Under the pieces are notes generated by a model. It made no database searches. It saw only the letters and a list, made by a program, of their open reading frames with translations, and was not told where the DNA came from. Of a stretch of 64,000 nt of DNA, positions 23,025 through 52,144 are shown one piece after another. The stretch comes from Escherichia coli (lineage in GTDB: Bacteria > Pseudomonadota > Gammaproteobacteria > Enterobacterales > Enterobacteriaceae): the NCBI RefSeq assembly GCF_030013595.1, contig NZ_CP122768.1; one strand, given 5' to 3'. Both the position numbers and the translations under genes were made by a program. Position 1 is the stretch's first letter. Each line of letters begins with the position of its first letter.

Positions 23025-25019
23025 TTATTTTTTAGTCATGAAGGCGACATCTATCGCCAATTGAAGGGCTGTTTTTTCCGATGTTCCAGGCGGAAGTATA
23101 TCTGCCGCCCTGTTATTCATATTTAAATCAAGCTGACCTGATTGTGTATTTATCTTTCCATTTTCTGTTGCAGTAATATTAAAATTCTTACAGGTTATAT
23201 TAAATATTCCGTCACTGGTCATTTGCAGGATAGTGTTCCCACAACTAAGAATTATGGAATCTCCCGCAGCAAGGCGTAAATTCTGTACGGCCTGAATCGT
23301 TTTATTTTGTCCGGCAAGGGAGGTATCATCCATCTGAACTGTAAGAGAACGTTCCTCACCAATTATCGCTGTTTCTGTTTTATCAATGACTTTAAGGCGA
23401 TTATTGCCCACCCAGTGGCTTTCATTATTATTTACTTCAATCCGCTGATCTTTTTCGGCATGTAGCCAGACCTCTTCACCGCCAGGTTTATCCTCAAAAC
23501 GTAGTGCGTTGGCATTGGTTGGGCCGCCGCCGATAGTGTGACTGTAAAATCCGCTTTGCGTCGCTGCGCCCGGTAGTCCCCACGGTGGCATGGTGTCCTG
23601 GTTGTAGGTACGCCCAACAATTATCGGTAAATCCGGATCACCGTTTTTGAAATCCACCAGTACTTCCTGACCAATGCGCGGGATCTGAATGCCACCGAAT
23701 CCTTTACCCGCCCACGGATAACTGACACGGACCCAGCAGGAACTATTTTCGTCATTCTTACCGTAACGATCCCAGCCAAACTGAACTTTCACCCGGCCAT
23801 ATTTATCTGTCCAGATTTCCTGCCCTGCCGGGCCGGTGACGATGGCGCTCTGCGGGCCTTTAGTGTGGGGTTTGCTCAGGGTTCGTTGTGGGCGGTAAAC
23901 TTCGCTGGTGGGATGCAGTTCAAAGCTGGTTGAGTAAGAGAAATGCTGCTCCTGGCCGCTGTGTTGCGCATTGTCCTGTATAAATAGCGTGGTCTGTACC
24001 AGCAGATATTCCCGGTTCACTTCGGCTGTCGGATAGTTTTCCAGGATGAAGGTAAAACCTGTCATCAGGGTACGAATATTGCCGCTGCCCTGTACCCGAC
24101 TACCTGGGCTACGCTGTTCTTCCATGCGAATGCGTGTCAGCATTTCACCTTCACTCTTTGTGAAGTAATCTCCCGGCCATTCGTAGTGCTCATATTCAGC
24201 AAGGCCGGTTTCACGCGGATTAGCCACGATGCTCTTCAGCAGTGAACGCGGCTTCATAAAGTCGAAATCATTCAGCACCCACTGTCCACTGCGCAGACTT
24301 TCATTTGCTGTGATGGTATGGATAAACTCCTTGTCCAGTTTCAGCCCTTTCTGGTAATAACACACCAGCGGCGAATCTGCGCATGCCTTGTGGACATTAA
24401 TGGCATCAGCCAGCACTAACGTGTGACTGTTCTCGCTGTGCTCAAACCACCAGTAGATACCCCACTCCTGCATCAGGCGCTGAACAAAATCGAAATCTGT
24501 TTCACCGTACTGCACCTGCCAGGCGCGAGTCGGATAATTTTCCACCAGTCGTTTTTCCACTGGCCAGGGGTACTCATCCAGTACCTCATCCAGGATCTCC
24601 ACCACGTTTTTATTCTGAAACGCTTTGTAGTCACTAGTGTGGGTCAGTATTTTTAACCACGGTTCGAGCCGCAGTTCATACACCACCGAACGTCCTTGAT
24701 GACCAGCCACGCGTGCCGCCGTCACCAGCCCGCTGATATAACGTTTTCCGCCGCCATCCAATTCGATATTGACGCACAGATCTTTGCCCACCATCGGTTT
24801 GAGCTGCAGGTTGGCTGCGGGGGAAACATAGCCCAGGTTCAGGATGTCAGGAGTTTTTAATTTAATAGAATAAGTAAATAGTTCCCCTACTGTTTCTGTA
24901 CCCCCTAAGCTTGCAAACAGTAACATTCCATCAGGAACTGCGCTGCCGCTCAAAGTCACGTTATGTGTACCCGATCCAGTTAGTGCGCCGGATGGATAAT
25001 CTGTAGCTGCAAAACTCAT
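23025..25019 (-). CDS. vgrG: VgrG (TssI) T6SS spike protein
   Basis: 664 aa; N-terminal VgrG-type region ([25 protein letters not shown]), gp27/gp5-like body, Gly-rich repeats; AAGGA RBS. Confidence 0.8.
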
Positions 25020-25240
25020 AATTAATCCTTTTAACTAGAAATGGATAAGTGCTAATAAGAAATCTTACAGAGAATAAAATATGCAATATATTCGTAGCTG
25101 GCATAAAACATCTCAATACTTATGCGTGCTACTGAAGATACTATCAACCATATATGCCTTGAAGAATGCACCGTCATGTTAACCTGGTGGAAACATTCAC
25201 CTAAAGTACATTAATAAAACTAATAAAATTATTTAATTTT

Positions 25241-25597
25241 TTATTTGATATGATTATCATCAAGTCTTAAAATACGTTCTCCGGTTCTAATTATGCTAAA
25301 ACCATAGTATTCTTTTTTACTTCCGGAAGAGAGCATATATTTCCCGATATACATAACATCTGAAGATAGCTCACTTATATCAATACATACGGGTTCGAAC
25401 TGACCTGTCACTCTTTTCAACTTTATTGCATTGCCATATTTACCTTCATATAAAACATAATTTGAAATAATATTCCCATCGTCTGGTTTTGAACAAATCT
25501 GTCCGTCTTGCAAATATACACTACCGGGTAACAATGGGCGAACATAATCACCAACAGTGCATCCCGACAAAAAGAAAAACAAAAAGAATCTCTTCAT
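25241..25597 (-). CDS. Lipoprotein, putative periplasmic immunity protein
   Basis: Signal peptide plus lipobox (FLSGC); start overlaps stop of the upstream HExxH gene (ATGA). Confidence 0.6.
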   Translation of the reverse strand: MKRFFLFFFLSGCTVGDYVRPLLPGSVYLQDGQICSKPDDGNIISNYVLYEGKYGNAIKLKRVTGQFEPVCIDISELSSDVMYIGKYMLSSGSKKEYYGFSIIRTGERILRLDDNHIK

Positions 25598-26163
25598 ATG
25601 ACACCCGCAGGAAATAAATTAAGCACCTTTTTGTATTTTTCCGATAGAGTGTTCACTGATTCAGTTGTATCACCTACATAGTTAACATTTGCCAAATCAG
25701 CCACCAGTCCATAGTTAATTAATAGCCAATAATCAGCAACTATAGATGCTTGTTGTTCCATGGAATAAGAAGAAATTGACTGTAAATTAAGATCGTAATG
25801 ATAATTTGCCGCCCAAGAAAATAAACCACGCAACTTAACTGCATACCCTTTCTGATATTGCCAAACATGCATCATTTCATGAATAAACAAGTGAGAAGCA
25901 CCTGCTACTGTTTCACGATCACCAGGCATTGCTTGCGATGAATAATCTGAACTATAAACAGCATCAGGATAATACATTTCCCCGTTTGGGGTCATCGCTG
26001 TTCTTTCCCCTTGACCAGGCAAATATTTTTCATTGTGGATCCATACCTTGCTATAATCAATTGTATTCTCAAAAATCGATCTGGCCAATGTTAATTCACC
26101 AGATGTCATTCTCCTTAATGACATATCCTTTCCCCTGGAAATAATATCTTTCAGATAAAACAC
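25594..26163 (-). CDS. HExxH zinc-metallopeptidase-like protein, candidate toxin/effector
   Basis: HEMMHVWQYQKG motif; no signal peptide; track start is GTG, ATG alternatives at 26124 and 26109. Confidence 0.55.
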   Translation of the reverse strand: MFYLKDIISRGKDMSLRRMTSGELTLARSIFENTIDYSKVWIHNEKYLPGQGERTAMTPNGEMYYPDAVYSSDYSSQAMPGDRETVAGASHLFIHEMMHVWQYQKGYAVKLRGLFSWAANYHYDLNLQSISSYSMEQQASIVADYWLLINYGLVADLANVNYVGDTTESVNTLSEKYKKVLNLFPAGVI

Positions 26164-27061
26164 AAACGCCCTTTGATGTTCAATATTCCCACTTTATACA
26201 GTATTGATGACATCATCTTCATAGAAAATAAAATCAAAGCAAGTTATCAACGTTTCCCGTTATGATTTCTTAACATTAATTCTCAGCATTTTTATTAATC
26301 TATCTTCAATATCAATAACCGATGCAAATGATTACGCAGCTAACATAATTCTCATCAATTGATTAATGTCTGTAAACGCTACCGCCCCACCCTGATATCT
26401 TAATCTGCACATAGCAATCTTAACGTTATGCCCCATACATTAGTAATGTAAATTAAGAATTCGGAATATATCAAATTCACTTCATAAATTAATATCGGGA
26501 ATGATATACACATTAATTATAATGAAGTAATGTTTTAAGAGTTGTAATGACCATGGAACAGGACTAATTCCAGAAGCTCCTGTTGGGCAATAGCGCGTTT
26601 ATCATCCTACATGCCTCTTACATTTTTTAGCCTTTTCTTTAACGTCAGCAATTGGCTCATTTAATCAGCAATTGTATTGGTATTTGGCGTATTACCCCTG
26701 AAACCCGTCATGTGCTAGCACCTCACTATTCAATGAGCCAACCACGCCAGTGTCCACTGCAACCACTGGCGTTCAGAGCGACGAACGAGTGGCGCAAGAG
26801 TAGGACTGCCGTCGGGCATCATCAAACCAATAGTGGTTGTTTCCGTCAAAATTTCATCAGGTTGCTATTTTGTTGCCGGCCGCCTTTATCCCCACATATT
26901 TATAGCGGGATTATTTTGCATCGTTACACGATAAAAGGTAGGATTCTGCGCCGACAGTTATACCCATAAAGAATAATGGTGAATCTTGTCATCGCCAGGA
27001 TGAATAAACATTGTTCATGGCAACTTATATGACTTTTTCATTAAAGCAATCAGGGAGAGCA

Positions 27062-35653: not shown

Positions 35654-36343
35654 GTACGGGCGTCCAGCCAGATGAATAAAACGCGCGCAAATATGCGTCA
35701 TTTTTTGATGTGCATCAAGTTTTTTCACCAGTTTGAGAAAAAATCATCAACAGCAACTTGCCCTTATCCATCTTCAGAATAAGTATTATTGCGGATTTTC
35801 TTAACCCGTACTATACACATAGGGGCAATGATAAAAGGTGGCAAAAATGAATGTTTCCAGTAGAACCGTAGTACTGATAAATGTCTTTGCTGCTGTTGGT
35901 TTGTTTACTCTTATCTCTATGAGATTTGGCTGGTTTATTTGATGTAGTGATTTTGCACGCAGCACGTACTGTCAGAGAAATCAGTGCTCTGACAGTACGC
36001 AAGATCATCTCATACTCTCCAGGTTTACAACATTATCCTTAATATTTACTTCTTTTTCCTGACATCTACATTGAAATAAGTAGAAAACATCCCCCTCCTG
36101 TCGTCTATACAGACAGCTTACTGATTCAAAGGGAACCTTGTTTTCACATTTTTCTATCATCAATACTTTAGACGCGCGGGAGTCTATAAATGCTTTATAC
36201 TTTCAGGGAATAAAGTAAATATAAAAAGATGGCGTAAAGTATATGCATGGCAGGATGATTGCAACCTCCTTGATGACGCTGTCCCATTGAAATTGCAAAC
36301 CCCGCACTGGTTATCTTGCCCATTTATCATGCAGAACAGATAA

Positions 36344-37153
36344 TTATAGGTCTCTAAATATCTCAGAAAGATTGAATTTTTTATAGTCCATCTCTTGAAT
36401 ATTTCCATTTGATATCAATCGATTCATCTCTTCAACAAAATAATTTATATCATCACATTTGTTATTATCCGGAAGATCTGAGTAATTATAATTCCACCAC
36501 TTTATTCTCAACAATTCATCAATAACATTTGAATCAAATCTAAATCTGATTATTTTTGCTGGAACTCCTGCAACTATGGCATATGGGGGCACATCTTTGG
36601 TAACAACGGAATTGGCAGCAATAACAGCACCATCACCTATTGCGATGCCACCTTTCAGTACAACATCATTTCCTATCCAGACATCATTTCCTATAATCGG
36701 ATTTTCAGGTTTGGTAATGAATGGTTTCAATGTCCAGCTACGTTCAAACTCACTCTTAGCAAACTTATCAAATTCACCGTTATAAGTCATCATGTGAGTA
36801 GTAAAACGATTCAAAGGATGATTTCCACCCATTATTTTTACATTTGATGCAATACTACAAAATCGACCTATATGTATATTCCCTGTAAAATGACAGGTCG
36901 GGAATGAAAAAGCGCCGACACTGGAGAAATTTTTTACAGGCATTGTTGAATATTCTTCAGCAATAACATTATCTTCAATTGTTATCTTGTCACCTTTTGA
37001 GAAAAGAAATAAATTTCTTTCTTTATACGACTTCTTCCCCTTATGATTTAAAAAGATTTTATTATCCATACAAAACTCAAAGTGTTTTTTCGCCCACCTG
37101 AAGGTAAGGGTTTTATTTTTATCTTCCGTGAATTTATACAATTGAACTTTCAT
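36344..37153 (-). CDS. Hexapeptide-repeat (XAT/Vat-like) acetyltransferase
   Basis: IGRFCSIASNVKIMGGNHP...IGNDVWIGNDVVLKGGIAIGDGAVIAANSVVTKDVPPYAIVAGVPAKIIRFRF...WWN resembles streptogramin A acetyltransferases; very AT-rich. Confidence 0.7.
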   Translation of the reverse strand: MKVQLYKFTEDKNKTLTFRWAKKHFEFCMDNKIFLNHKGKKSYKERNLFLFSKGDKITIEDNVIAEEYSTMPVKNFSSVGAFSFPTCHFTGNIHIGRFCSIASNVKIMGGNHPLNRFTTHMMTYNGEFDKFAKSEFERSWTLKPFITKPENPIIGNDVWIGNDVVLKGGIAIGDGAVIAANSVVTKDVPPYAIVAGVPAKIIRFRFDSNVIDELLRIKWWNYNYSDLPDNNKCDDINYFVEEMNRLISNGNIQEMDYKKFNLSEIFRDL

Positions 37154-41578: not shown

Positions 41579-42724
41579 TTAGCGACCGCCCATAATGGCA
41601 ATGTAATCCTGCGTCCAGCGACTGTAGGGAACAAACTTGCCCCCTTCTGCTATAGGCGTTTTCCAGAAGGCGATTTTATCGAAATAGTTAAAACCGTTGG
41701 TTTCACAACCTTTTTCGCCTAATAACGGACTGGCTTTACACCCTTCCGGCACTACCGGTAACGAGCCAAACCAGGCCGCCACATCGCCCTGCACTTTTGG
41801 CGTTAATGACCAGTTCATCCATTTGTAGGCGCAAACCGGATGTTTCGCTTCACTATGTAGCATGGTGGTGTCAGCCCAACCGGTAACGCCCTCTTTCGGG
41901 AATACGGTCGCGACAGGCTGGCCTTCGGCTTTCAGGGCGTTGGCCTGATAGGGCCATGCACTGGAAGCAACCACACCCTCGTTTTTGAAATCGCTCATTT
42001 GCACGGTAGTGTCATGCCAGTAGCGATGGATCAAACTATGTTGATCGCGCAGCACTTTCAGCACCGCCTGGTACTGTTCTTCGGTGAGTTGATACGGATC
42101 GCTGATGCCCAACTGCGGCTGAGTGGCTTTAACGAACAACGCAGCGTCCGCAATGTAGATAGGGCCATCATAAGCCTGGACGCGGCCTTTATTGCTCTTG
42201 CCGTCCGGCAGATTCTGCTCAACAAAAACCACTTGCCAGCTATCCGGCGGCGTCGGGAAGGTTTTAGTGTTGTACATCAGCAGGTTCGGCCCCCATTGGT
42301 AAGGTGTGCCGTAAACTTTGCCGCCAACGTTAAACCAGTCGCCTTTAACCACGCGCGGATCGAGCGCTTTCCAGTTGGGAATCAAGGCAGTATTAATCGG
42401 CTGCACGCGTTTGCCCATAATCAAACGCAGCGAGGCATCGCCAGATGCCGTAACCAGATCGTAACCCCCTTTGGTCATCAGACTGACCATTTCATCGGAA
42501 GTCGCGGCGGTTTTCACATTCACCGCGCAGCCTGTCTCTTTTTCGAATTGCGTTACCCAGTCGTATTGTTTATCAGTTTGTCCGCGTTCGATGTATCCCG
42601 GCCAGGCGATAATATCCAGTCGCCCTTCCGGTTTATCTAAATTGGTAGGCGGTTCGGCGGCGTGAGCGGTCATTATTGTCATGGTGAGCGCACACAGGCT
42701 GCTGCGGGCAAATGTCTTGCTCAT
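41579..42724 (-). CDS. ydcS: Periplasmic polyamine-type substrate-binding protein YdcS
   Basis: 381 aa with signal peptide; PotD/PotF-like. Confidence 0.85.
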   Translation of the reverse strand: MSKTFARSSLCALTMTIMTAHAAEPPTNLDKPEGRLDIIAWPGYIERGQTDKQYDWVTQFEKETGCAVNVKTAATSDEMVSLMTKGGYDLVTASGDASLRLIMGKRVQPINTALIPNWKALDPRVVKGDWFNVGGKVYGTPYQWGPNLLMYNTKTFPTPPDSWQVVFVEQNLPDGKSNKGRVQAYDGPIYIADAALFVKATQPQLGISDPYQLTEEQYQAVLKVLRDQHSLIHRYWHDTTVQMSDFKNEGVVASSAWPYQANALKAEGQPVATVFPKEGVTGWADTTMLHSEAKHPVCAYKWMNWSLTPKVQGDVAAWFGSLPVVPEGCKASPLLGEKGCETNGFNYFDKIAFWKTPIAEGGKFVPYSRWTQDYIAIMGGR

Positions 42725-42968: not shown

Positions 42969-44375
42969 TTACAGCCGTTCTTGAATAAGTTTGCCTAATT
43001 GTTTAACCGCCTGTTCTTCACGTTCTCCCCACTGCCACGCGGTATTAAAACGGAAAAAACGTGACCAGTTTTCACCGGTAGAAAACATTTTACCCGGCGC
43101 AATACTGATATGATGCGCCAGTGCCGCCAGGCTTAATTCGCCCGCATCTAACGGTTCGGGAAGCTCCAGCCAGAGAAAATAACCGCTGTCATTATGATGA
43201 ATTTTCACTTCCGCAGGCAGATAACGCAGCAGTGCTTGCCAGGCACGTTGTTTACGTTCCGCAAGCTGGCGACGCAGGCGACGAAGATGGGCGTCGTATC
43301 GGCGCGTGGAAAGGTAATCCACCAGAGCAAGCTGCATCGGTGAGCTGGTGGAAAGCGTACTCATCAACTGCAAGCGTTGAATTTTACGTGCATGTTTTCC
43401 GGCGGCGACCCAACCAATACGAAAACCAGGCACCAGACATTTCGAAAACGAAGAGCAATGCAAAACACCATCGTGGTGATCCCACGCTTTCGCAGGCAGC
43501 GGTTTTTCCCGTCCAAAATAAAGTTCGCTGTAAACGTCATCTTCAATCAGCGTTACGTTGTACTGATTGAGCAACGCTACCAGCCGCGCTTTTTTCTGCG
43601 GCGTTAAGGTAAATCCGAGTGGATTCTGGCTATTAGTCATCAGCCAGCACGCTTTCACTGGATACTCCTGCAACGCCAGTTCCAGCGCCTTGAGATCAAT
43701 CCCTTCTTTAACGTCCGTCGCCACCGATAACGCCTTCAGCCGTAACCGCTCCAGCGCCTGCAACGCGCCGTAGAAACAAGGATTCTCTACTATCACCCAA
43801 TCGCCCGGTTCAGTGACCGCTTGTAAACTGAGGTTTAATGCCTCTAACGCCCCGGCGGTAATGACAATTTCATCAGGAGAAATAGTGATGCCCTGTAAGG
43901 CATAGCGACGAGCAATAGCCTGACGCAGTTCTGCGTTTCCTGGCGGTAAGTTTTCAATCACGCTCATCGCCGTGGCGGTTTTGCTTACCTGCGCCAGCGA
44001 GCGGTTTAGTTGTTGGAGGGGGAAAAGTCGCGGGTCGGGAAAGGCCGAGGCAAACGGAACTACCGACGGATCGCGACTGGCCTGCAACATATCAAAAATA
44101 TAGGTGTTGATATCGACTGCTTCATCTCGAGTGACAGGAATGACTGGCGCTTTCGGCATTTTTATTGCCTGTGGCGCAACGTAATAACCCGACTGCGGTC
44201 GAGCGATAATATGTCCCTGACTTTCGAGCAACTGATAGGCATGGCTGACAGTCATAAAGCTCATGCCAGAAAGCGCCACCTGGTCACGCAACGAAGGCAA
44301 ACGATCGCCAGGTTGCCAGATACCCGACGCAATCTGCTCGCGTAATTGTTCTGCAAGCTGCTGGTATTTTTTCAT
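42969..44375 (-). CDS. ydcR: MocR/GntR-family regulator with aminotransferase domain YdcR
   Basis: 468 aa; N-terminal HTH plus PLP-dependent aminotransferase-like domain. Confidence 0.85.
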   Translation of the reverse strand: MKKYQQLAEQLREQIASGIWQPGDRLPSLRDQVALSGMSFMTVSHAYQLLESQGHIIARPQSGYYVAPQAIKMPKAPVIPVTRDEAVDINTYIFDMLQASRDPSVVPFASAFPDPRLFPLQQLNRSLAQVSKTATAMSVIENLPPGNAELRQAIARRYALQGITISPDEIVITAGALEALNLSLQAVTEPGDWVIVENPCFYGALQALERLRLKALSVATDVKEGIDLKALELALQEYPVKACWLMTNSQNPLGFTLTPQKKARLVALLNQYNVTLIEDDVYSELYFGREKPLPAKAWDHHDGVLHCSSFSKCLVPGFRIGWVAAGKHARKIQRLQLMSTLSTSSPMQLALVDYLSTRRYDAHLRRLRRQLAERKQRAWQALLRYLPAEVKIHHNDSGYFLWLELPEPLDAGELSLAALAHHISIAPGKMFSTGENWSRFFRFNTAWQWGEREEQAVKQLGKLIQERL

Positions 44376-44453
44376 TATCGAATCGTAATTATGTGCAGAT
44401 GATTCGGCAGTCTATATCAGTTGTTAAAAATGACAACTTTTCGTTAACTGTAA

Positions 44454-44558
<105 letters not shown>

Positions 44559-44573
44559 TTTAGGTTTCCCTAA

Positions 44574-44579
44574 TATAAT
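44574..44579 (+). promoter_or_regulatory. Candidate -10 hexamer (TATAAT) upstream of the first moron gene
   Basis: Perfect TATAAT about 30 nt upstream of ATG 44610; -35 not convincing. Confidence 0.3.
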
Positions 44580-44609
44580 GCCCCCACAATAACACGAGGG
44601 GGTACAACA

Positions 44610-44996
44610 ATGTTCAATATCATGATTCGTAAATTTGGCGAGATGACTTTCGAGAAAGCTGGTGTTGCTCGTACCGAAGAAGAAGCAATGGCCTTAGTTC
44701 TGGTAGCACTGAGATCATCACCTGAGATTATCGACGCTGAATATGTAGCTGCTGAGGGTGAGATTAAAGAGATTAAAGCGGTGGCTAAGGAATTAGGTGT
44801 TAAAGGTTTCCGTAAGCTGAGATTGAATCGTGAGACTTATGTAATTGGACAGCAAGGACAATACCTAGATGAGAATACCGTGATTGTTCTACTGAATAAG
44901 ATTACCCGCTACGGTTGGAAGATTGAGCAATATAAAACGTGTTTCGAATTATACGAAAAAGGTTTGCTGGATACTCTGACCATCGTTCGCGCTTAA
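44610..44996 (+). CDS. Hypothetical protein, prophage moron
   Basis: 128 aa, strong RBS (gaggggg), own terminator downstream; no family recognised. Confidence 0.6.
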   Translation: MFNIMIRKFGEMTFEKAGVARTEEEAMALVLVALRSSPEIIDAEYVAAEGEIKEIKAVAKELGVKGFRKLRLNRETYVIGQQGQYLDENTVIVLLNKITRYGWKIEQYKTCFELYEKGLLDTLTIVRA

Positions 44997-45010
44997 TTAA
45001 TTTCTAATTT

Positions 45011-45037
45011 GGTGGGTGTAATTCCCACCGCTTTTTA
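45011..45037 (+). terminator. Rho-independent terminator
   Basis: ggtggg tgtaatt cccacc followed by GCTTTTT. Confidence 0.65.
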
Positions 45038-45053
45038 AACTGGAGAATCAAAC

Positions 45054-45134
45054 ATGTTAGCTTTTATCTCATTCGTGGGAGGTAGTCTCACAACTATGAT
45101 TAGTCTTTCTTATCTTGTCGTTAGTATGGGGTGA
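45054..45134 (+). CDS. Small hydrophobic peptide (26 aa)
   Basis: MLAFISFVGGSLTTMISLSYLVVSMG; GGAG RBS; below the ORF-track length cut-off. Confidence 0.3.
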   Translation: MLAFISFVGGSLTTMISLSYLVVSMG

Positions 45135-45137
45135 GCA

Positions 45138-45263
45138 ATGAAACAATTTCATGATGGCATTTCATCTAAGACATTCAAGAAAGAATATAGCGGATTGTGT
45201 ATTAACTGGATTGATTTGATTGGTGCGGTTGTGTTTGGTCTGGTAATTAGCATCAATTTTTAA
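45138..45263 (+). CDS. Small membrane peptide (41 aa) with C-terminal TM segment
   Basis: MKQFHDGISSKTFKKEYSGLCINWIDLIGAVVFGLVISINF; starts 3 nt after the previous small ORF. Confidence 0.35.
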   Translation: MKQFHDGISSKTFKKEYSGLCINWIDLIGAVVFGLVISINF

Positions 45264-45304
45264 CGATATAAATATATCGTAATTCATTCAAAGAGGATTC
45301 AATT

Positions 45305-45646
45305 ATGAAAAAGACTATCTACGCAATTATTGTTTCTGTGTGTGTTGGTGGCATCGGTGGATTTGTTTGTGGGTATGACTATTCCGATACTCAACATCAA
45401 GAGACTATCCGGTCAAATAAGGCCGAGATTAAGGATCTGAATCAGGAGATTAGCCAGTTAGAAAATGCTCTCTCACTCAAAGACAGTGAATATAGCGAGG
45501 TTTATGCAGATAAACAAAAATATTGGAAAGAGAAAGATAATCTCGTTGTTTACGGGATGAAATTGTGTAAGAGCATGAAGGACGAGCGCAGTTGTTTAAT
45601 GGAACTTGCCCTTAAAGGTAACGTGACCATCGACTTCAAAGACTAA
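45305..45646 (+). CDS. Membrane-anchored coiled-coil protein
   Basis: N-terminal TM (IYAIIVSVCVGGIGGFVCG) then coiled-coil-like region; AGAGGA RBS. Confidence 0.55.
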   Translation: MKKTIYAIIVSVCVGGIGGFVCGYDYSDTQHQETIRSNKAEIKDLNQEISQLENALSLKDSEYSEVYADKQKYWKEKDNLVVYGMKLCKSMKDERSCLMELALKGNVTIDFKD

Positions 45647-45675
45647 TTAATTCAAATAACAAAGAGGATTCTATT

Positions 45676-45921
45676 ATGAAAAAGATTATCGCTGGTATCG
45701 TTCTTGCTCTGGGTTTGGTTGGTGCTGCAAATGCCGAACAATATGTACAGGGTGATAGTGTCAAGCGTGCTGCCGTTGCACCTTCTTTAAATCAACTGTG
45801 TACTGAATTAGCACAGGTTGCCGGAGTTGGTGACGATGACGACTTTATTACTGCGTGTGTGTGGAGTCATATCGAGGATATTAATAAACGTGATGCAAAA
45901 CTAACTGGAAAGAAATATTAA
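45676..45921 (+). CDS. Small secreted protein (signal peptide, two Cys)
   Basis: MKKIIAGIVLALGLVGAANA/EQY...; RBS context near-identical to the previous gene. Confidence 0.55.
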   Translation: MKKIIAGIVLALGLVGAANAEQYVQGDSVKRAAVAPSLNQLCTELAQVAGVGDDDDFITACVWSHIEDINKRDAKLTGKKY

Positions 45922-45932
45922 TGACTTACTAA

Positions 45933-45975
45933 CCAATGCCCCTATCGTTATAATACACGGTAGGGGCGTTTTTGT
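45933..45975 (+). terminator. Rho-independent terminator before the recombinase gene
   Basis: ccccta ... tagggg stem followed by CGTTTTTGTTTGG. Confidence 0.55.
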
Positions 45976-45986
45976 TTGGAAATGGT

Positions 45987-47666
45987 ATGAAAACTAAACT
46001 ATATTCGTATATTCGCTTCTCGTCTATGCGTCAGAATGATGGTTCGAGTTATGAACGGCAAATCAGGATGGCGAGAGAGGTTGCGGCAAAGTATGACCTT
46101 GAACTGGTAAATGATTATCAGGATCTGGGTGTATCTGCGTTTAAGGGTGCTAACTCTAAAACAGGGGCGCTATCTCGTTTCCTTGATGCAATTGGTAGAT
46201 CCGTTCCTGTTGGTAGCTGGCTATTCATTGAAAACTTGGACCGCTTATCCCGTGCCGATATTGTCAGTGCGCAGGAGTTATTCCTTTCAATCATCCGTAG
46301 GGGAATAACCATTGTTACTGGCATGGATAACAAGATCTACTCGCTGGATACTGTTACCGCTAATCCGATGGACCTGATGTTCTCCATCCTTCTATTCATC
46401 CGTGGTAATGAGGAAAGTCAGACTAAGCGCAATCGTACTAACTCAAGCGCATTGATTAAGATTAAAGCTCATCAAGAAAATCCCCAGAATCCGGCAGTGG
46501 CAATCGAGGAAGTTGGAAAGAATATGTGGTGGACTGATACCACATCTGGTTATGTGCTTCCTCATCCGGTCTTCTTCCCTATTGTTCAGGAAGTTGTGGA
46601 ATTACGCAGGAATGGACGGTCAACCGCCGAGATACTGGATCACCTTAACGCGACATACACACCACCACCAGCCGCAAGTCACAAGAGGCATTCAAACTGG
46701 TCACGGGCAATGATTGAAAGGTTGTTCCATACCCGCGCTTTGATTGGTATCAAGGAAATCTCTGTAGATGGCGTTAAGTATGAGTTAAAGGATTATTATC
46801 CTCGTGTGCTAGATGACGCTGAGTTTTATCACCTTAAGAAAAGCATTGGTGTTAGAGCATGTAACTATGGAGACAAGGAAGAAGTTAAACCGATCCCCCT
46901 GCTTAGTGGTGTTAATCTGCTGAAATGTGATCATTGCGGTTCCGCTATGGTTAAGGTGAAAGGAACAAACAGACGGCCTAACCAATATCGTTATTCATGC
47001 GATGCAATGCGCTCTAGTCGTATTGAATGTGTGCATACAAACTGGAGTTTTCGCGGCGACCAATTAGAGAAAGCTGTATTGCAATTGCTGGCTGATAAAA
47101 TCTGGATTGCTGAAGATAAGGCTAATCCGGTTCCGGCTTTGAAAGTACAGATTGATGAAATATCACGCAAGATTGATAACCTGATTGCCCTTTCTGCTAT
47201 GACAGGAGCAACGAAGGAGCTAGCCGATCAGATTACTACCCTCAATAGCGAGCGTGAAACACTCTACAATCAGATCAAGATGGCAGAAGAGGAAATGTAT
47301 TCTGTGGACTCTCAAGGCTGGGAGAAGCTCGCAGAATTTGATTTAGAAGATGTTTACAACGAGGATCGCATTAAGGTCCGGTTTAAGATTAAGCAAGCTC
47401 TAAAACGGATCGGGTGTAGCAGGATTGACAAGTACAAAAACTTGTTTGTACTGGAATACATCGATGGCAAGACCCAGAGAGTTGTAATAGAAAATTCAAG
47501 AGGACCGAGGAAAGGCCGGATCTTCGTTGATTTGAAGACTATCAATGATAGGCAGATTCTGGAGAGTAACGGGCTTGTTCTGCATCCATGTTTAGACATG
47601 CTGACAGATAAGAACTGGAAACCAGAAGAGGAAATACCAGGTCCATTACAGGAATTTGGAATTTAA
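45987..47666 (+). CDS. Large serine recombinase (probable prophage integrase)
   Basis: ATG at 45987 (track start 45972 is TTG); N-terminal resolvase catalytic region (LYSYIRFSSMRQ), zinc-ribbon-like Cys cluster, C-terminal coiled coil. Confidence 0.8.
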   Translation: MKTKLYSYIRFSSMRQNDGSSYERQIRMAREVAAKYDLELVNDYQDLGVSAFKGANSKTGALSRFLDAIGRSVPVGSWLFIENLDRLSRADIVSAQELFLSIIRRGITIVTGMDNKIYSLDTVTANPMDLMFSILLFIRGNEESQTKRNRTNSSALIKIKAHQENPQNPAVAIEEVGKNMWWTDTTSGYVLPHPVFFPIVQEVVELRRNGRSTAEILDHLNATYTPPPAASHKRHSNWSRAMIERLFHTRALIGIKEISVDGVKYELKDYYPRVLDDAEFYHLKKSIGVRACNYGDKEEVKPIPLLSGVNLLKCDHCGSAMVKVKGTNRRPNQYRYSCDAMRSSRIECVHTNWSFRGDQLEKAVLQLLADKIWIAEDKANPVPALKVQIDEISRKIDNLIALSAMTGATKELADQITTLNSERETLYNQIKMAEEEMYSVDSQGWEKLAEFDLEDVYNEDRIKVRFKIKQALKRIGCSRIDKYKNLFVLEYIDGKTQRVVIENSRGPRKGRIFVDLKTINDRQILESNGLVLHPCLDMLTDKNWKPEEEIPGPLQEFGI

Positions 47667-47703
47667 GCGGCCTAAATCGACGTATAACGAGCTAAAACAG
47701 TTA

Positions 47704-47727
47704 AGGGGTACAGATGTACCCCTTTTT
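47704..47727 (+). terminator. Rho-independent terminator after the recombinase gene
   Basis: aggggtac agat gtacccct followed by TTTTT. Confidence 0.75.
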
Positions 47728-48245
47728 AATTTAATTGCGTTAGGCAGCGTAAGCAAGTTTCATAGTAGTTTCCTCTAAAATAATAAGTTCACTACTATTT
47801 ATCAGAGAAAATTGTCTTACTATTGCATTCTCTATCTGGATGTGGGTATAGGCGGGATTGAATACGGCAAAACTGAAACATTCCACTACTGCAATAAATC
47901 ACTAAACAATATAAAGAATATTGCAAGTGTGGAGTGGAACTAATGCAAGATATTAAAATTCATTTTCAAGATTACAGTTTCGTTAAGGTTGATTGCTCTC
48001 CTTCTATCGGAATGGAATTAAGAGATTATTTCTCGTTTGAGGTTGAAGGGGCTAGGTTTAGCCCCCGTTACAAGTATTCTGGCTGGGATGGACGAATAAG
48101 ACTGTTTACGCATGAAAACACCCTACCAATTGGACTATTAAAAACGTTGGGTGTCTTCGTTAAAAATATGGGCTATTCAGTCTGGATTGACCCCAGATTG
48201 CTTGAGAAGGAAGATGTAACCAAAGACGCGATTAATGAATGGATT

Positions 48246-48254
48246 GATTCCTTA
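48246..48254. repeat. IS1 target-site duplication, left copy (gattcctta)
   Basis: Identical 9-mer at 49022-49030. Confidence 0.85.
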
Positions 48255-48309
48255 GGTGATGCTGCCAACTTACTGATTTAGTGTATGATGGTGTTTTTGA
48301 GGTGCTCCA

Positions 48310-48585
48310 GTGGCTTCTGTTTCTATCAGCTGTCCCTCCTGTTCAGCTACTGACGGGGTGGTGCGTAACGGCAAAAGCACCGCCGGACATCAGCGCTATC
48401 TCTGCTCTCACTGCCGTAAAACATGGCAACTACAGTTCACTTACGCCGCCTCTCAGCCCGGTACGCACCAGAAAATCATTGATATGGCCATGAATGGCGT
48501 CGGATGTCGCGCCAGTGCACGCATTATTGGCGTTGGCCTCAACACGATTTTCCGCCACTTAAAAAACTCAGGCCGCAGTCGGTAA
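48310..48585 (+). CDS. insA: IS1 InsA
   Basis: [43 protein letters not shown]. Confidence 0.9.
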
Positions 48586-49007
48586 CCTCGCGCATACAAC
48601 CGGGCAGTGATGTGATTGTCTGCGCTGAAATGGACGAACAGTGGGGCTACGTCGGTGCTAAATCACGTCAGCGCTGGCTGTTTTACGCGTATGACAGGAT
48701 GCGGAGGACGGTTGTGGCGCACGTCTTCGGTGAACGCACTCTGGCCACACTGGAGCGTCTTCTGAGCCTGCTGTCGGCCTTTGAGGTCGTGGTATGGATG
48801 ACGGATGGCTGGCCGCTGTATGAATCACGCCTGAAGGGAAAGCTGCACGTTATCAGCAAGCGTTATACTCAGCGCATTGAGCGGCATAACCTGAATCTGA
48901 GACAACATCTGGCAAGGCTGGGACGGAAGTCACTGTCGTTCTCAAAATCGGTGGAGCTGCATGACAAGGTCATCGGGCATTATCTGAACATAAAACACTA
49001 TCAGTAA
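48504..49007 (+). CDS. insB: IS1 InsB reading frame (expressed as InsAB by frameshift)
   Basis: Overlaps insA in the -1 frame; IS1 transposase C-terminal portion. Confidence 0.85.
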
Positions 49008-49021
49008 GTTGGAGTCATTAC

Positions 49022-49030
49022 CGATTCCTT
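49022..49030. repeat. IS1 target-site duplication, right copy (gattcctta)
   Basis: Identical 9-mer at 48246-48254. Confidence 0.85.
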
Positions 49031-50211
49031 AGAAGTGTATTCCGGTAGCAATAAAATCAATCCTTATTGGTATCAAAGGGAGGCAGTCTTTCAGGGTATC
49101 CACAATCGCCGTAGAATGCTGGTTCTTCCTACCAGTGCCGGAAAGTCATTGATTGCTTGTATGCTGTCTCGTTGGTACTTAGAGAACTACACCGGAAAAG
49201 TGTTAATCATTGTTCCGACTACATCGCTAGTGGTTCAAATGAGGGATGATTTCATCGATTATAGGCTATTCCCTTATGAAGCAATTCATACAATGATGAG
49301 TGGTAGCGGGAAACATCCGGGAGACAGGTTAATCACGGTTAGTACCTGGCAATCAGCTTGCAAGATGCCTCCTGAATGGTTCCGACAATATGGAATGTTG
49401 ATAGTTGATGAATCGCATAAGGCTAGTGCCAAAAATATTACCAATATCATCAATGGAATGAATCATTGCCAATTTAAGATCGGCATGACTGGTTCCCCGA
49501 AAGAATCAAAGTGCCATTTAATGCAGTATGTCGGGCTTTTCGGTGATATTTCTAAGATCGTGAGTATTGACCGCCTGATGGAAGAAGGGCAGGTGACAAA
49601 ACTGAAAATTAACTGTCTTTTCCTTCGTTATACAGATGAGGAATGTAGCGCGGTTAAGGGGCGAGAATATGCGGAAGAGATCAAGTATATTACGTCTAAC
49701 CCACGACGAAATAAGTTTGCTTGTAATTTGGCGCTAAAACTAGCTAAGAAGGGCGAAAACGTATTCCTGATGTTCCGCAATACTAAGCACGGAAAACTTA
49801 TGTATGATGCGTTACAGAAGGTACACGACAAGGTTTATTATATTGACGGTGGAGTTAAGACAGAAGAACGTGATGAATTTAAGAAAATGGCGGAGGGTGA
49901 CACCGGGATCATTTGCGTTGCATCCTATGGTGTGTTCTCTACTGGTGTTTCAATTAAGAATTTGCATCATGTTATTTTCGGTCATCCAGTGAAGGAATCA
50001 ACTATCGTTCGTCAGAGTATCGGTCGTGCATTGCGTAAACATGGTTCTAAGGATATTGCAACGGTCTGGGATCTTATAGATCATCTGTGTATATTCGGTC
50101 GTAACGGAAAAGTCAAGCATAAAAATTATGCGGTAAAACATGCACTTGAGAGAATCCGCTATTATCTAACCGACAAGTTCAGCTATGCAACTAAAACAAT
50201 TGCTATATAAC

Positions 50212-50244
50212 AAAAAAGCGCCCACTAGAGGCGCTTTAATTTTA
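50212..50244. terminator. Bidirectional hairpin terminator between the convergent helicase and M15 peptidase genes
   Basis: aagcgcc cactaga ggcgctt, A-run upstream and T-rich downstream. Confidence 0.6.
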
Positions 50245-50595
50245 TCCATTCCATCGTGATTTTTTCGATCTGGAATCGATATGCGTAAAGGTTTTATATT
50301 TGCCTAAGCCGTATTGAGTAGGATATTTCCCATCAAGATAAGCATGGACAATATCAGGGGAGACACCCTTGATCACAATGTCAGCCGCACGGCCTCGAAC
50401 GTGATAGCTGTTGGTTGCACCGCCTACATTCTTGTTATGAGTCGGGCAACGGTTGCCACTGTTAATAATCACTGGTTTACCGAAGTGCTCTCGTACATCC
50501 TCAAGAATTACCAGTAATTCAGCGTCGATTGTATCATAATCACATTTTCCGCATTTACATTTAAATTCCTTGCGAGAAAAATGCTTACTTAACAT
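50242..50595 (-). CDS. Peptidase M15-family (zinc D-Ala-D-Ala carboxypeptidase fold) protein, possible phage cell-wall hydrolase
   Basis: 117 aa with SYHVRGRAADI and HxH-type motif; GGGGG RBS. Confidence 0.6.
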   Translation of the reverse strand: MLSKHFSRKEFKCKCGKCDYDTIDAELLVILEDVREHFGKPVIINSGNRCPTHNKNVGGATNSYHVRGRAADIVIKGVSPDIVHAYLDGKYPTQYGLGKYKTFTHIDSRSKKSRWNG

Positions 50596-50604
50596 ATTAC
50601 CCCC

Positions 50605-50952
50605 TTAGATCATTTCGAAGATATAACCAATAAAGCGCATACCCTTGATATAATAAGGAGCAGTGCCTACACACACCGCGCGTGCATCGCCCAGACAGTT
50701 AAAGCTATAAGGATTAACTACATCGACTTCTTGCCCTACACGAAAACGATATTTAGGACGTTTAGCCAATGTAGCGACACAAAACACGGTCCCTTTTTCA
50801 TGATCGCGGATACATTCTTTATATTGTTTATGTTTAACTCTCTTCGCCTCAAAATCATGTGTCATGGATTCTGGGCTAATGCCATTGATAAAAATACCGG
50901 AAAGCTGGTCGACCGGATAAGTAGGAAATTCAGTAAAAATATTTTTAGCCAT
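50605..50952 (-). CDS. Hypothetical phage protein
   Basis: 115 aa, GGGGG RBS, no recognisable family. Confidence 0.5.
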   Translation of the reverse strand: MAKNIFTEFPTYPVDQLSGIFINGISPESMTHDFEAKRVKHKQYKECIRDHEKGTVFCVATLAKRPKYRFRVGQEVDVVNPYSFNCLGDARAVCVGTAPYYIKGMRFIGYIFEMI

Positions 50953-50990
50953 GTTATACCCCCATAAGATTCTATGAGGGTATTTATTGA

Positions 50991-51674
50991 TTAAACGTAT
51001 TTCATGCGCGATTTAATGTGCTTATTGATGTTTTCAAGCATCATTGCTTCGTTGCTTTCCCACGATCCTAGCGTCGAATAACGAGTAGAAATTTTATCCG
51101 ACTTAACGGCAACAATTCGCTTACTCTGTTTCTGTATGCGTTTCTCTAAGCGACGTTTTGCCACCGCCGATCCATTCTTAGCGCGTTTGGTTCGGGATTT
51201 CTTAGGCTTGTACTTCTTCATGATAAAAGTCCCTTCCTGGTTCTCTACCTTGATGAAGTTGCCATTTTCGATGTTACGCATCATCTTACCGCCTTTGATG
51301 GCCTTAATGTTCCCGTGGGCGTCTAAGACCTTACCGTTGGCAATTGGCACTAGCTTATTGATTTTGCCACCATCGAAATAGTGTTTCAGATAGTCATCCT
51401 GACTGCCGATCTTCTTGTCCTTATCCCTTGCGCCCTTGATGAAGATTTGGTGTCTCGTCCCTGAACGGTTCTTGTAGTTGGTATTACCTACAGCTTGTTG
51501 AGTCCAGCGAGTAGGTCTATCAACATTCTTGTTAATCTTCTTCTGGAGTGCTCTGGAAGCAAAGATCGCCCCTTCCCCTATCGCCTTTTCGAATGTATCG
51601 GTTGCTTTATCAGACCATTGGCGTAACGCTTTCTTAGTCCTTAGAGCGTTTCGTTTATTGGTACTGGTTGCCAT
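50991..51674 (-). CDS. Highly basic hypothetical phage protein
   Basis: 227 aa, Lys/Arg-rich C-terminal half; GGGGG RBS. Confidence 0.5.
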   Translation of the reverse strand: MATSTNKRNALRTKKALRQWSDKATDTFEKAIGEGAIFASRALQKKINKNVDRPTRWTQQAVGNTNYKNRSGTRHQIFIKGARDKDKKIGSQDDYLKHYFDGGKINKLVPIANGKVLDAHGNIKAIKGGKMMRNIENGNFIKVENQEGTFIMKKYKPKKSRTKRAKNGSAVAKRRLEKRIQKQSKRIVAVKSDKISTRYSTLGSWESNEAMMLENINKHIKSRMKYV

Positions 51675-51675
51675 G

Positions 51676-51846
51676 TTAGCCCCCTAATAACGAAAAGACC
51701 CCCGCCAGTGTCCTTAGCAATTGTTCATCCACGGTCATAGCCGGGAGTTCAAGCCCAAAGGACGTTAGCAGAGGTCTAATTGCTACGTTATAAGTGAGGG
51801 CGACAATCAAGAGATAACCAAAATATTTCTTAAGTTTATTCTTCAT
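51676..51846 (-). CDS. Small membrane protein (56 aa)
   Basis: ATG at 51846 with GGGGTG RBS (track start is TTG); one TM segment. Confidence 0.4.
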   Translation of the reverse strand: MKNKLKKYFGYLLIVALTYNVAIRPLLTSFGLELPAMTVDEQLLRTLAGVFSLLGG

Positions 51847-51865
51847 ATATTCACCCCTTTTATTA

Positions 51866-52144
51866 TTATTTTTGTCTGAGTAAATCGATAACTTGGTCAA
51901 ATTTAGCGTCCATCGCAACCACTTTCTTTTCTATACCGTGAAGGGTTTGTTCCATGCGATAAACTCTCTCGGCGATCTGGTCGTGGTTATTCTGCATTGT
52001 TTCAAACTTCTGATTAAACAATGCATCATTGGACTCTAATTTCGACAATCTATTTTCTGTGGCTAATTGATTTCGGTGAAGTCTCCATAATCCACCACAA
52101 ATTAAGGCGATAACACCGATACCGCCATATATAATTTCAGTCAT
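51866..52144 (-). CDS. Membrane-anchored coiled-coil protein, holin/spanin-like by architecture
   Basis: N-terminal TM (IIYGGIGVIALICGGLW) then coiled coil. Confidence 0.45.
   Translation of the reverse strand: MTEIIYGGIGVIALICGGLWRLHRNQLATENRLSKLESNDALFNQKFETMQNNHDQIAERVYRMEQTLHGIEKKVVAMDAKFDQVIDLLRQK

Follow-up and report, generated by a model that had tools for sequence, protein, structure and literature searches.

State-dependent promoter switching is known for integrative and conjugative elements (ICEs) and for the circular forms of insertion sequences (ISs). In IS circles of the IS911 type, the junction promoter Pjunc takes its -35 and -10 hexamers from the two ends of the element, which are abutted only in the circle; these circles are made by a DDE transposase, and the junction promoter drives the transposase. 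In phage lambda, integration separates int from sib, an RNase III site that lies 3' of int and exerts its effect post-transcriptionally. Lambdoid phages also carry morons such as HK97 gp15, small genes that are present or absent between phages, flanked by terminators and often encode membrane proteins excluding superinfecting phages; morons have their own promoter and are expressed from the repressed prophage. In ICEclc (Pcirc) and ICEKp1 (the 3'-end promoter), a promoter at the far end is joined to the att-side genes only in the excised circle; in these elements one arm holds the entire promoter, which reads through attP into int (PMC5812530, PMC13023037). Here we describe a cluster of five short genes, A to E, at the edge of a prophage in a 64,000-nucleotide stretch of Escherichia coli DNA (contig NZ_CP122768.1; hereafter the window). 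The first-pass annotation of this DNA placed four or five short genes between the prophage junction and the recombinase; we confirmed five short open reading frames (ORFs) and their boundaries, all on the + strand between attL and a large serine recombinase. Judging from the att sequences, the only strong promoter for this cluster appears to be assembled at attP and dismantled by integration.

The prophage carries a large serine recombinase, an M15 endolysin (50242-50595) and siphovirus tail genes that reach the end of the window. On the host side, the E. coli genes ydcS (41579-42724, - strand) and ydcR (42969-44375, - strand) are followed by a 3' fragment of the host antitoxin gene hicB (44454-44573, - strand; the last ~35 codons), left behind by the prophage insertion. 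Near-identical genomes annotate this remnant (translation ...GKPKQEITRLFNLHHATKIDAVQLAAKALGKELSLVMV) as partial hicB, and prophage DNA begins at ~44568. The window stops inside the prophage, and the far prophage end was read from relatives; in OkiPb01713, a relative with 98% identity, the complete element measures ~37.5 kb and at its other end meets the 5' part of hicB, beside hicA. We compared attL, attR and attB of four genomes, covering three hicB insertions, one ycdX insertion and three arm sequence variants. The gene ycdX is a second insertion site that carries the same phage arm in relatives, so that one attL phage arm is common to hicB- and ycdX-inserted prophages. In the window, attL (44540-44600) is made up of a host half-site extending to 44565, the crossover dinucleotide TT (44566-44567) and the phage arm (44568-44595, CCCTAATATAATGCCCCCACAATAACAC).

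We rebuilt attP by joining the attL and attR arms. The rebuilt site is a 28+2+28 quasi-palindrome, symmetric at 20 of 28 positions, with the outer motifs GTGTTATTGGGGG and CCCCCACAATAACAC. It reads ...GGGGG TTGACT ACGTTCGGG-TT-CCCTAA TATAAT GCCCCC..., a sequence that matches the sigma-70 consensus at 11 of 12 positions with the optimal 17-bp spacing and that faces gene A, the start of which lies 42 nt past the crossover. The -10 half, TATAAT, occupies 44574-44579 (+ strand) of the window; its partner TTGACT, which stands 17 bp upstream in attP only, comes from the attR-side arm, beyond the window. The TT crossover sits within the promoter spacer with the two hexamers on opposite arms, and integration therefore parts -35 from -10. 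All four genome pairs gave rebuilt attP promoters of 10-11/12 with a 17-bp spacer (TTGACT or TTTACA, followed by TATAAT or TATCAT), whereas attL, attR and attB score at most 8/12, these scores being measures of consensus match and not of activity. Just one 11/12 match occurs in the whole window, both strands included. Eight positions of the attP arm depart from dyad symmetry and six of them fall in the hexamers (p ~0.005 in a post hoc test, and weaker in two of the variants). The 5' untranslated region and ribosome-binding site (RBS) past the -10 are kept in relatives, whether gene A or F90, an additional gene found before A in many of them, comes first.

In the integrated DNA, a consensus scan of 44300-45925 found no + strand sigma-70-like site of at least 9/12. 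The first-pass annotation had credited the five genes with their own expression signals; this holds for RBSs and terminators, and fails for promoters. A terminator lies directly 5' of the -35 on the attR side, and because of this placement the split-promoter unit is, on the predicted signals, insulated. The last gene on that side varies between relatives, being a 100-aa ORF in most (10652-10957 in locus L004) and an LprI-family lysozyme inhibitor in E. coli EC416, and in either case the same terminator follows, right before the -35 arm of attP. Downstream of the -10, a hairpin at 44581-44602 (+ strand; CCCCC-ACAATAACAC-GAGGGGG; -11.9 kcal/mol by RNA folding) joins the attP arm to the first gene's Shine-Dalgarno sequence by base pairing. 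A transcript starting ~7 nt past the -10 would be free of the C-run that pairs with the gene A Shine-Dalgarno sequence, and a read-through transcript from the host would include it; we infer a regulatory role for this hairpin.

Taking these observations together, we tentatively favour a reading whose probability we place just short of even, namely that the cluster is an attP-proximal, state-dependent early transcription unit, on from free phage DNA and cut off by integration. On unintegrated DNA the near-consensus sigma-70 promoter of attP would point into the first gene (A here, F90 in many relatives), and free phage DNA, newly injected or newly excised, would give strong transcription of A. 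A first terminator, t1, would then pass a fraction of this transcription into B, C, D and E, and a second, t2, would insulate the integrase, perhaps with a weak promoter of its own in the t2 loop. Integration would split the promoter and leave the cluster without a recognisable one, so that A at least would be off in the lysogen. The genes, their mosaic content and the presence of the promoter in rebuilt attP and not in attL are read directly from the sequence, and from there we infer promoter activity, read-through at t1 and protein functions. On this basis it is probably free phage DNA, and not the lysogen, that expresses the cluster genes. A more specific version, which we regard as doubtful, holds that the attP promoter is an integration-operated switch: the entering phage would express a swappable counter-defence or host-takeover cassette (A or F90), and recombination would then silence the cassette permanently, sparing the defences of the lysogen. 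Such an arrangement would amount to a "reverse moron" and to the first description of a split promoter at the attP of a serine-integrase phage; we found no description of a split promoter at a phage attP in a literature search that was not exhaustive.

The proposed arrangement shares with ICEclc and ICEKp1 a dependence of expression on the integration state, predicted here from the rebuilt attP sequence. It differs from these two tyrosine-integrase ICEs in that the crossover falls in the spacer with -35 and -10 on separate arms, in that the element is a phage with a serine integrase, and in that cargo genes (A or F90) come first after the promoter, with two terminators before int. As in IS911-type Pjunc, the hexamers are supplied by two element ends; unlike Pjunc, they meet at the attP of a temperate phage, and the promoter points toward small cargo genes. 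As with lambda sib, genes lose contact with the cis-acting signal that controls them when attP recombines during integration, although here the separated signal is the promoter itself. The cluster resembles lambdoid morons in consisting of small, terminator-flanked genes present or absent between collinear relatives, and departs from them in that no prophage promoter was seen, B and C are invariant and the family searches turned up no sequence similarity to known exclusion proteins. If our favoured reading is true, cargo at a prophage edge need not serve the lysogen, and some of it may be wired for free phage DNA only. State-dependent promoter switching would then no longer be confined to ICEs and IS circles but would include a phage with a serine integrase, whose promoter is taken apart by the recombination event itself, and attP would offer synthetic biology a ready-made switch operated by recombination.

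Several points weigh against a state-dependent unit. The attP sequence is a reconstruction and not an observed copy, and the attR arm used for this window was taken from the 98%-identical relative. An intact attP was not found in two IMG/VR scans, a degenerate attP pattern had no match in metagenome contigs, and all seven metagenome contigs with the attL-side arm (7/7) are integrated copies. The hexamers lie within the integrase binding site, and their conservation could reflect recombination and not transcription. The intact -10 left in attL could allow low expression, and consensus scans often miss promoters in AT-rich foreign DNA. The integrase is co-oriented and lies 1.4 kb downstream of the split promoter, but t1 and t2 intervene, and the ICE logic in which the promoter drives int is therefore not directly transferable. 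Finally, the envelope-directed, fast-diverging products of D and E look like classical cargo expressed in the lysogen, and an LprI-family lysozyme inhibitor at the attR-side end of the EC416 prophage (locus L034, 271-1041) likewise resembles lysogen-expressed cargo.

To place the five genes in their family, we mapped the genes from attL to the integrase in 33 related loci (three RefSeq genomes, 26 IMG/VR entries and four assemblies), with presence counts taken over 30 scored loci. The first-pass annotation had proposed accessory cargo. This description suits A (25/30), D (only 5-6/30) and E (17/30), and it does not suit B (29/30, locus L029 being the exception) or C (30/30), a pair that belongs, by its distribution, to the phage core and not to the accessory cargo. 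The additional gene F90 (90 aa, phrog_6147) precedes A in 21/30 loci and is absent from this window. The region is thus best described, from its gene content, as a mosaic in which a B-C core is flanked by exchangeable slots. We used the ratio of nonsynonymous to synonymous polymorphism (pN/pS), with the integrase as the comparison value (0.21-0.29), and by this measure all five ORFs are real genes under purifying selection. Scans of the five proteins against Pfam, NCBIfam, PADLOC and PHROGs named no function; the earlier remark that none is recognisable was borne out, with negative results in Pfam, NCBIfam and PADLOC and matches in PHROGs only to families of unknown function.

Gene A (44610-44996, + strand; pN/pS 0.15-0.27) is a real gene and encodes, as described before, a 128-aa cytoplasmic protein followed by its own terminator, t1. 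The N-terminal 50 residues are poorly modelled, and residues 50-128 form a conserved alpha/beta domain with a basic KGFRKLRLKR motif and an invariant G-x-Q; the C-terminal 75 residues match phrog_14908, a PHROGs family of unknown function. A profile search against the PDB returned only spurious RecA matches. We rejected the RefSeq labels "beta/alpha barrel domain-containing protein" and "type I 3-dehydroquinate dehydratase", which rest on a sub-threshold DHquinase_I match (E 0.24). Where F90 precedes it, the protein has a 145-aa form, and the gene of the window is a deletion form that has lost F90 and has the attP-proximal RBS fused to a Met inside the 145-aa sequence. An exhaustive HMMER scan of 1.8 billion representative proteins placed the domain in ~20 representative clusters. 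It stands alone as an ~80-aa protein in Salmonella and is 45% identical to small proteins of virulent T4-like phages of the RB49-like group (Krischvirus), in which the domain protein is encoded between alt and a DNA methyltransferase gene, in a group of small early genes. The domain occurs in virulent phages and is therefore not tied to lysogeny. Gene A most likely encodes a cytoplasmic protein made early by the phage, not one that protects the lysogen; because its slot is exchangeable and its domain is shared with virulent phages, the most economical guess is that it acts in counter-defence or host takeover.

The two tiny hydrophobic peptides of the first-pass annotation proved to be real genes, each with one hydrophobic segment by hydropathy. 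Gene B (45054-45134, + strand) has its own Shine-Dalgarno sequence (GGAG) and encodes 26 aa without charged residues, at a pN/pS of 0-0.15; gene C (45138-45263, + strand; pN/pS 0.12-0.24) encodes a 41-aa tail-anchored membrane peptide with a basic N-terminus and a C-terminal transmembrane segment. Across the 33 loci, 7/9 variable sites in B and 21/35 in C fall at third codon positions, and some relatives carry an in-frame 3-nt indel in C. Locus L038 has a strongly diverged B/C pair in which both frames, the lengths and the hydrophobic pattern are kept. We predict that both B and C are inner-membrane micro-proteins. An 18-bp palindrome, ACGATATAAATATATCGT (45264-45281), conserved across relatives, separates C from the next gene. 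In the RefSeq records inspected B and C are unannotated, which shows how small conserved phage genes get missed; in some records C is labelled "hypothetical protein". In the degraded prophage of E. coli PSJ-07 (locus L051, 2890-3860), an IS1-associated deletion has removed B through int together with the first part of the endolysin gene, and the IS1 now sits in the gap.

The size and hydrophobicity of these peptides recall the ShoB/Ibs/Ldr class of small hydrophobic type I toxin peptides, and their invariance across the family would suit B and/or C as toxin-like membrane peptides that stabilise the prophage under the control of an antisense RNA antitoxin. We consider this explanation very improbable. 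Rfam has no match in 44300-48000, and no conserved - strand promoter lies over B-C, the sole - strand site (45354-45326) being in the non-conserved gene D. The transmembrane segment of C is C-terminal, unlike that of most type I toxins.

Genes D and E differ from this core in distribution and in their alleles. Gene D (45305-45646, + strand; 113 aa, pN/pS 0.09-0.53) encodes a protein that starts with a hydrophobic anchor or signal, continues with a coiled-coil segment that varies between alleles and ends in a conserved part containing two Cys; hydropathy and a predicted coiled-coil-like stretch support its earlier description as a membrane-anchored coiled-coil protein. The D allele of L038 is 60% identical and differs mainly in the coiled coil. 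Gene E (45676-45921, + strand; 81 aa, pN/pS 0.15-0.28) has a predicted Sec signal peptide (MKK...ANA/EQ) and a 61-aa mature part that was modelled as a two-helix hairpin with two conserved Cys, consistent with the secreted Cys-containing protein seen before. The model of mature E has no PDB match at E<1, and a resemblance of E to T4 Spackle was dismissed as unsupported. E exists in two allelic classes and has a diverged allele of 75% identity, and the D and E alleles vary independently. In a word-indexed search of 5.8 billion proteins, both were confined to Escherichia and Shigella.

The near-identical RBS contexts of D and E, already remarked on in the first-pass annotation, form a direct repeat (45289-45319 and 45660-45690, + strand; 31 nt, 93.5% identical) that comprises RBS and first codons, brackets the D cassette and extends to 63 nt at 75% identity. 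In loci that have no D, gene C is joined straight to the E-type copy of the repeat. In 11 relatives the place of E is taken by a secreted protein of 137 aa, unrelated to E but carrying the same signal peptide, and in locus L031 (578-1624) the D/E slot holds an endonuclease of the HNH/homing type (348 aa; phrog_681, E 1e-73). D, E and the alternative cargo are predicted to be envelope-directed, which fits exclusion-type functions, and D and E could be exchangeable envelope proteins acting in exclusion, a role with which the B-C pair is also compatible.

These features would suit a classical moron cluster for superinfection exclusion or lysogenic conversion, in which the lysogen would transcribe the genes from promoters missed by the scan or from the residual attL -10, and the envelope products of B to E would block phage DNA entry or access to the receptor. 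The cluster lies at the prophage edge adjoining the integrase, collinear relatives differ in whether they have A, D and E, and D is bracketed by the 31-nt repeat as an inserted cassette would be. D and E have diverged alleles, prediction places four of the five products in the membrane or periplasm, the family-wide B and C would suit exclusion of the phage's own kind, and one relative has the LprI-family lysozyme inhibitor at its other end. We regard this explanation as possible, though on balance unlikely. In the integrated state no promoter of at least 9/12 stands 5' of any of the five genes; the pattern of presence and absence (A, D, E) and the terminators (t1, t2) are those of morons, but the scan showed no prophage promoter, and these signals speak against lysogenic expression of defence genes, at least for A. 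The product of A is cytoplasmic and has a domain that is also found in virulent phages. Because two copies of the cassette region coexist in three of 57 genomes, any exclusion within the family must be less than absolute. No PHROG annotated for superinfection exclusion was matched, and similarity to known exclusion proteins (T4 Imm/Sp, P22 Sie, HK97 gp15, Cor/Llp type) was found in none of PHROG, Pfam and NCBIfam. The suggestion that these are defence genes also gained nothing from PADLOC-DB 2.0, in which A, B, C and E have no match at E<=0.1 and no system was matched beyond coiled-coil noise for D. The latter matches, at E 5e-4 to 7e-4, link the transmembrane segment and coiled coil of D to the reverse transcriptase-associated SLATT and the RmuC models, and no reverse transcriptase lies nearby.

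The architecture of D, with a transmembrane segment, a periplasmic coiled coil and Cys, and its weak match to phrog_739 (Rz-like spanin, E 0.0024) bring up a further explanation, namely lysis accessory genes that complement the M15 endolysin, B and C serving as holin- or antiholin-like peptides and D as the inner-membrane spanin, of the Rz type. The neighbours of the endolysin include no recognised holin or spanin family, and B and C are invariant, as expected of core lysis genes. Against this, D is absent from most relatives, and the phrog_739 match is no stronger than coiled-coil composition alone would give. E has a signal-peptidase-I site (VGAANA/EQ) and no lipobox Cys (LPAM_1 E 0.07) and so cannot be the o-spanin; B, at 26 aa, falls far short of known holins, which are far larger. 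The cluster also lies beyond the integrase, on the strand opposite to the late/lysis operon. We therefore judge a lysis function improbable.

Terminator t1 (45010-45036, + strand; hairpin 45010-45030, stem GGTGGG/CCCACC, T5; -11.4 kcal/mol) follows A and stays with B-C even in relatives without A. A promoter inside t1 was considered and discarded; the loop sequence TGTAAT is not conserved, and its -35 matches at only 2-3/6 positions. Terminator t2 (45935-45978, + strand; hairpin 45935-45970, -22.6 kcal/mol, with a T-run) is strong and stands after E, directly before the integrase start. Its loop holds TATAAT (45949-45954), and TTACTA (45926-45931) lies 17 nt upstream, a 9/12 promoter match, suggesting that an integrase-specific promoter may be embedded in t2. 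The integrase itself, a large serine recombinase of 559 aa from the ATG used in RefSeq relatives (45987-47666, + strand), matches phrog_95 (E 1e-58), and its relatives carry the Pfam domains Resolvase, Recombinase and Zn_ribbon_recom. A bidirectional terminator, t3 (47703-47724), was found after the integrase in the terminator scan; altogether, 44300-48000 contains six terminator-like sites vs 2.1 expected from shuffles.

The cassette region was found in 57 of 5426 complete E. coli genomes. The prophage has no DNA-level match among GenBank phage genomes, its nearest capsid is 41% and its nearest integrase ~30% identical, and by these comparisons it therefore represents an uncharacterised temperate phage lineage without a sequenced close relative; a non-exhaustive literature search found nothing specific to it. 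The genomes with two copies of the cassette region are UTME-9, BS74R-D and HCP5S3_I4 (3/57), which suggests double lysogeny. In UTME-9 attL lies in ycdX and attR in hicB, ~570 kb apart, perhaps through an inversion between the copies. At the hicB site the gene is broken at about codon 103, and its upstream part gains eight phage-coded residues (locus L004, 10038-10568) and is left without the C-terminal DNA-binding region, with hicA intact. Insertion could thus deregulate the HicAB toxin-antitoxin module, raising the question of whether the phage alters HicAB control.

Downstream of the integrase, a UvsW-like helicase gene (47934-50210; phrog_16259, phrog_9690) is split by an IS1 (insA/insB, 48310-49007), and because of this interruption the present prophage copy may be defective. 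The interval between integrase and endolysin is a second variable hotspot (window 47667-50241; L001 9268-9419; L002 7393-9316; L039-L041 6000-8246). It holds the helicase here, is empty in OkiPb01713 and contains several small reverse-strand ORFs in UTME-9; other relatives have proteins of 341-398 aa, two of three with faint CapR or MUG113 matches, together with a 190-aa ORF. The genes of this slot are possible defence cargo. Beside the endolysin, no holin or spanin family was recognised in 50242-52144, and candidates for these functions are a 92-aa protein with a transmembrane segment and coiled coil (51866-52144) and a 56-aa ORF annotated in relatives. Elsewhere in the window, islands of low GC content (32-40% vs ~52% around) occupy 1-4000, 15000-18000, 25000-27000 and 36000-37000.

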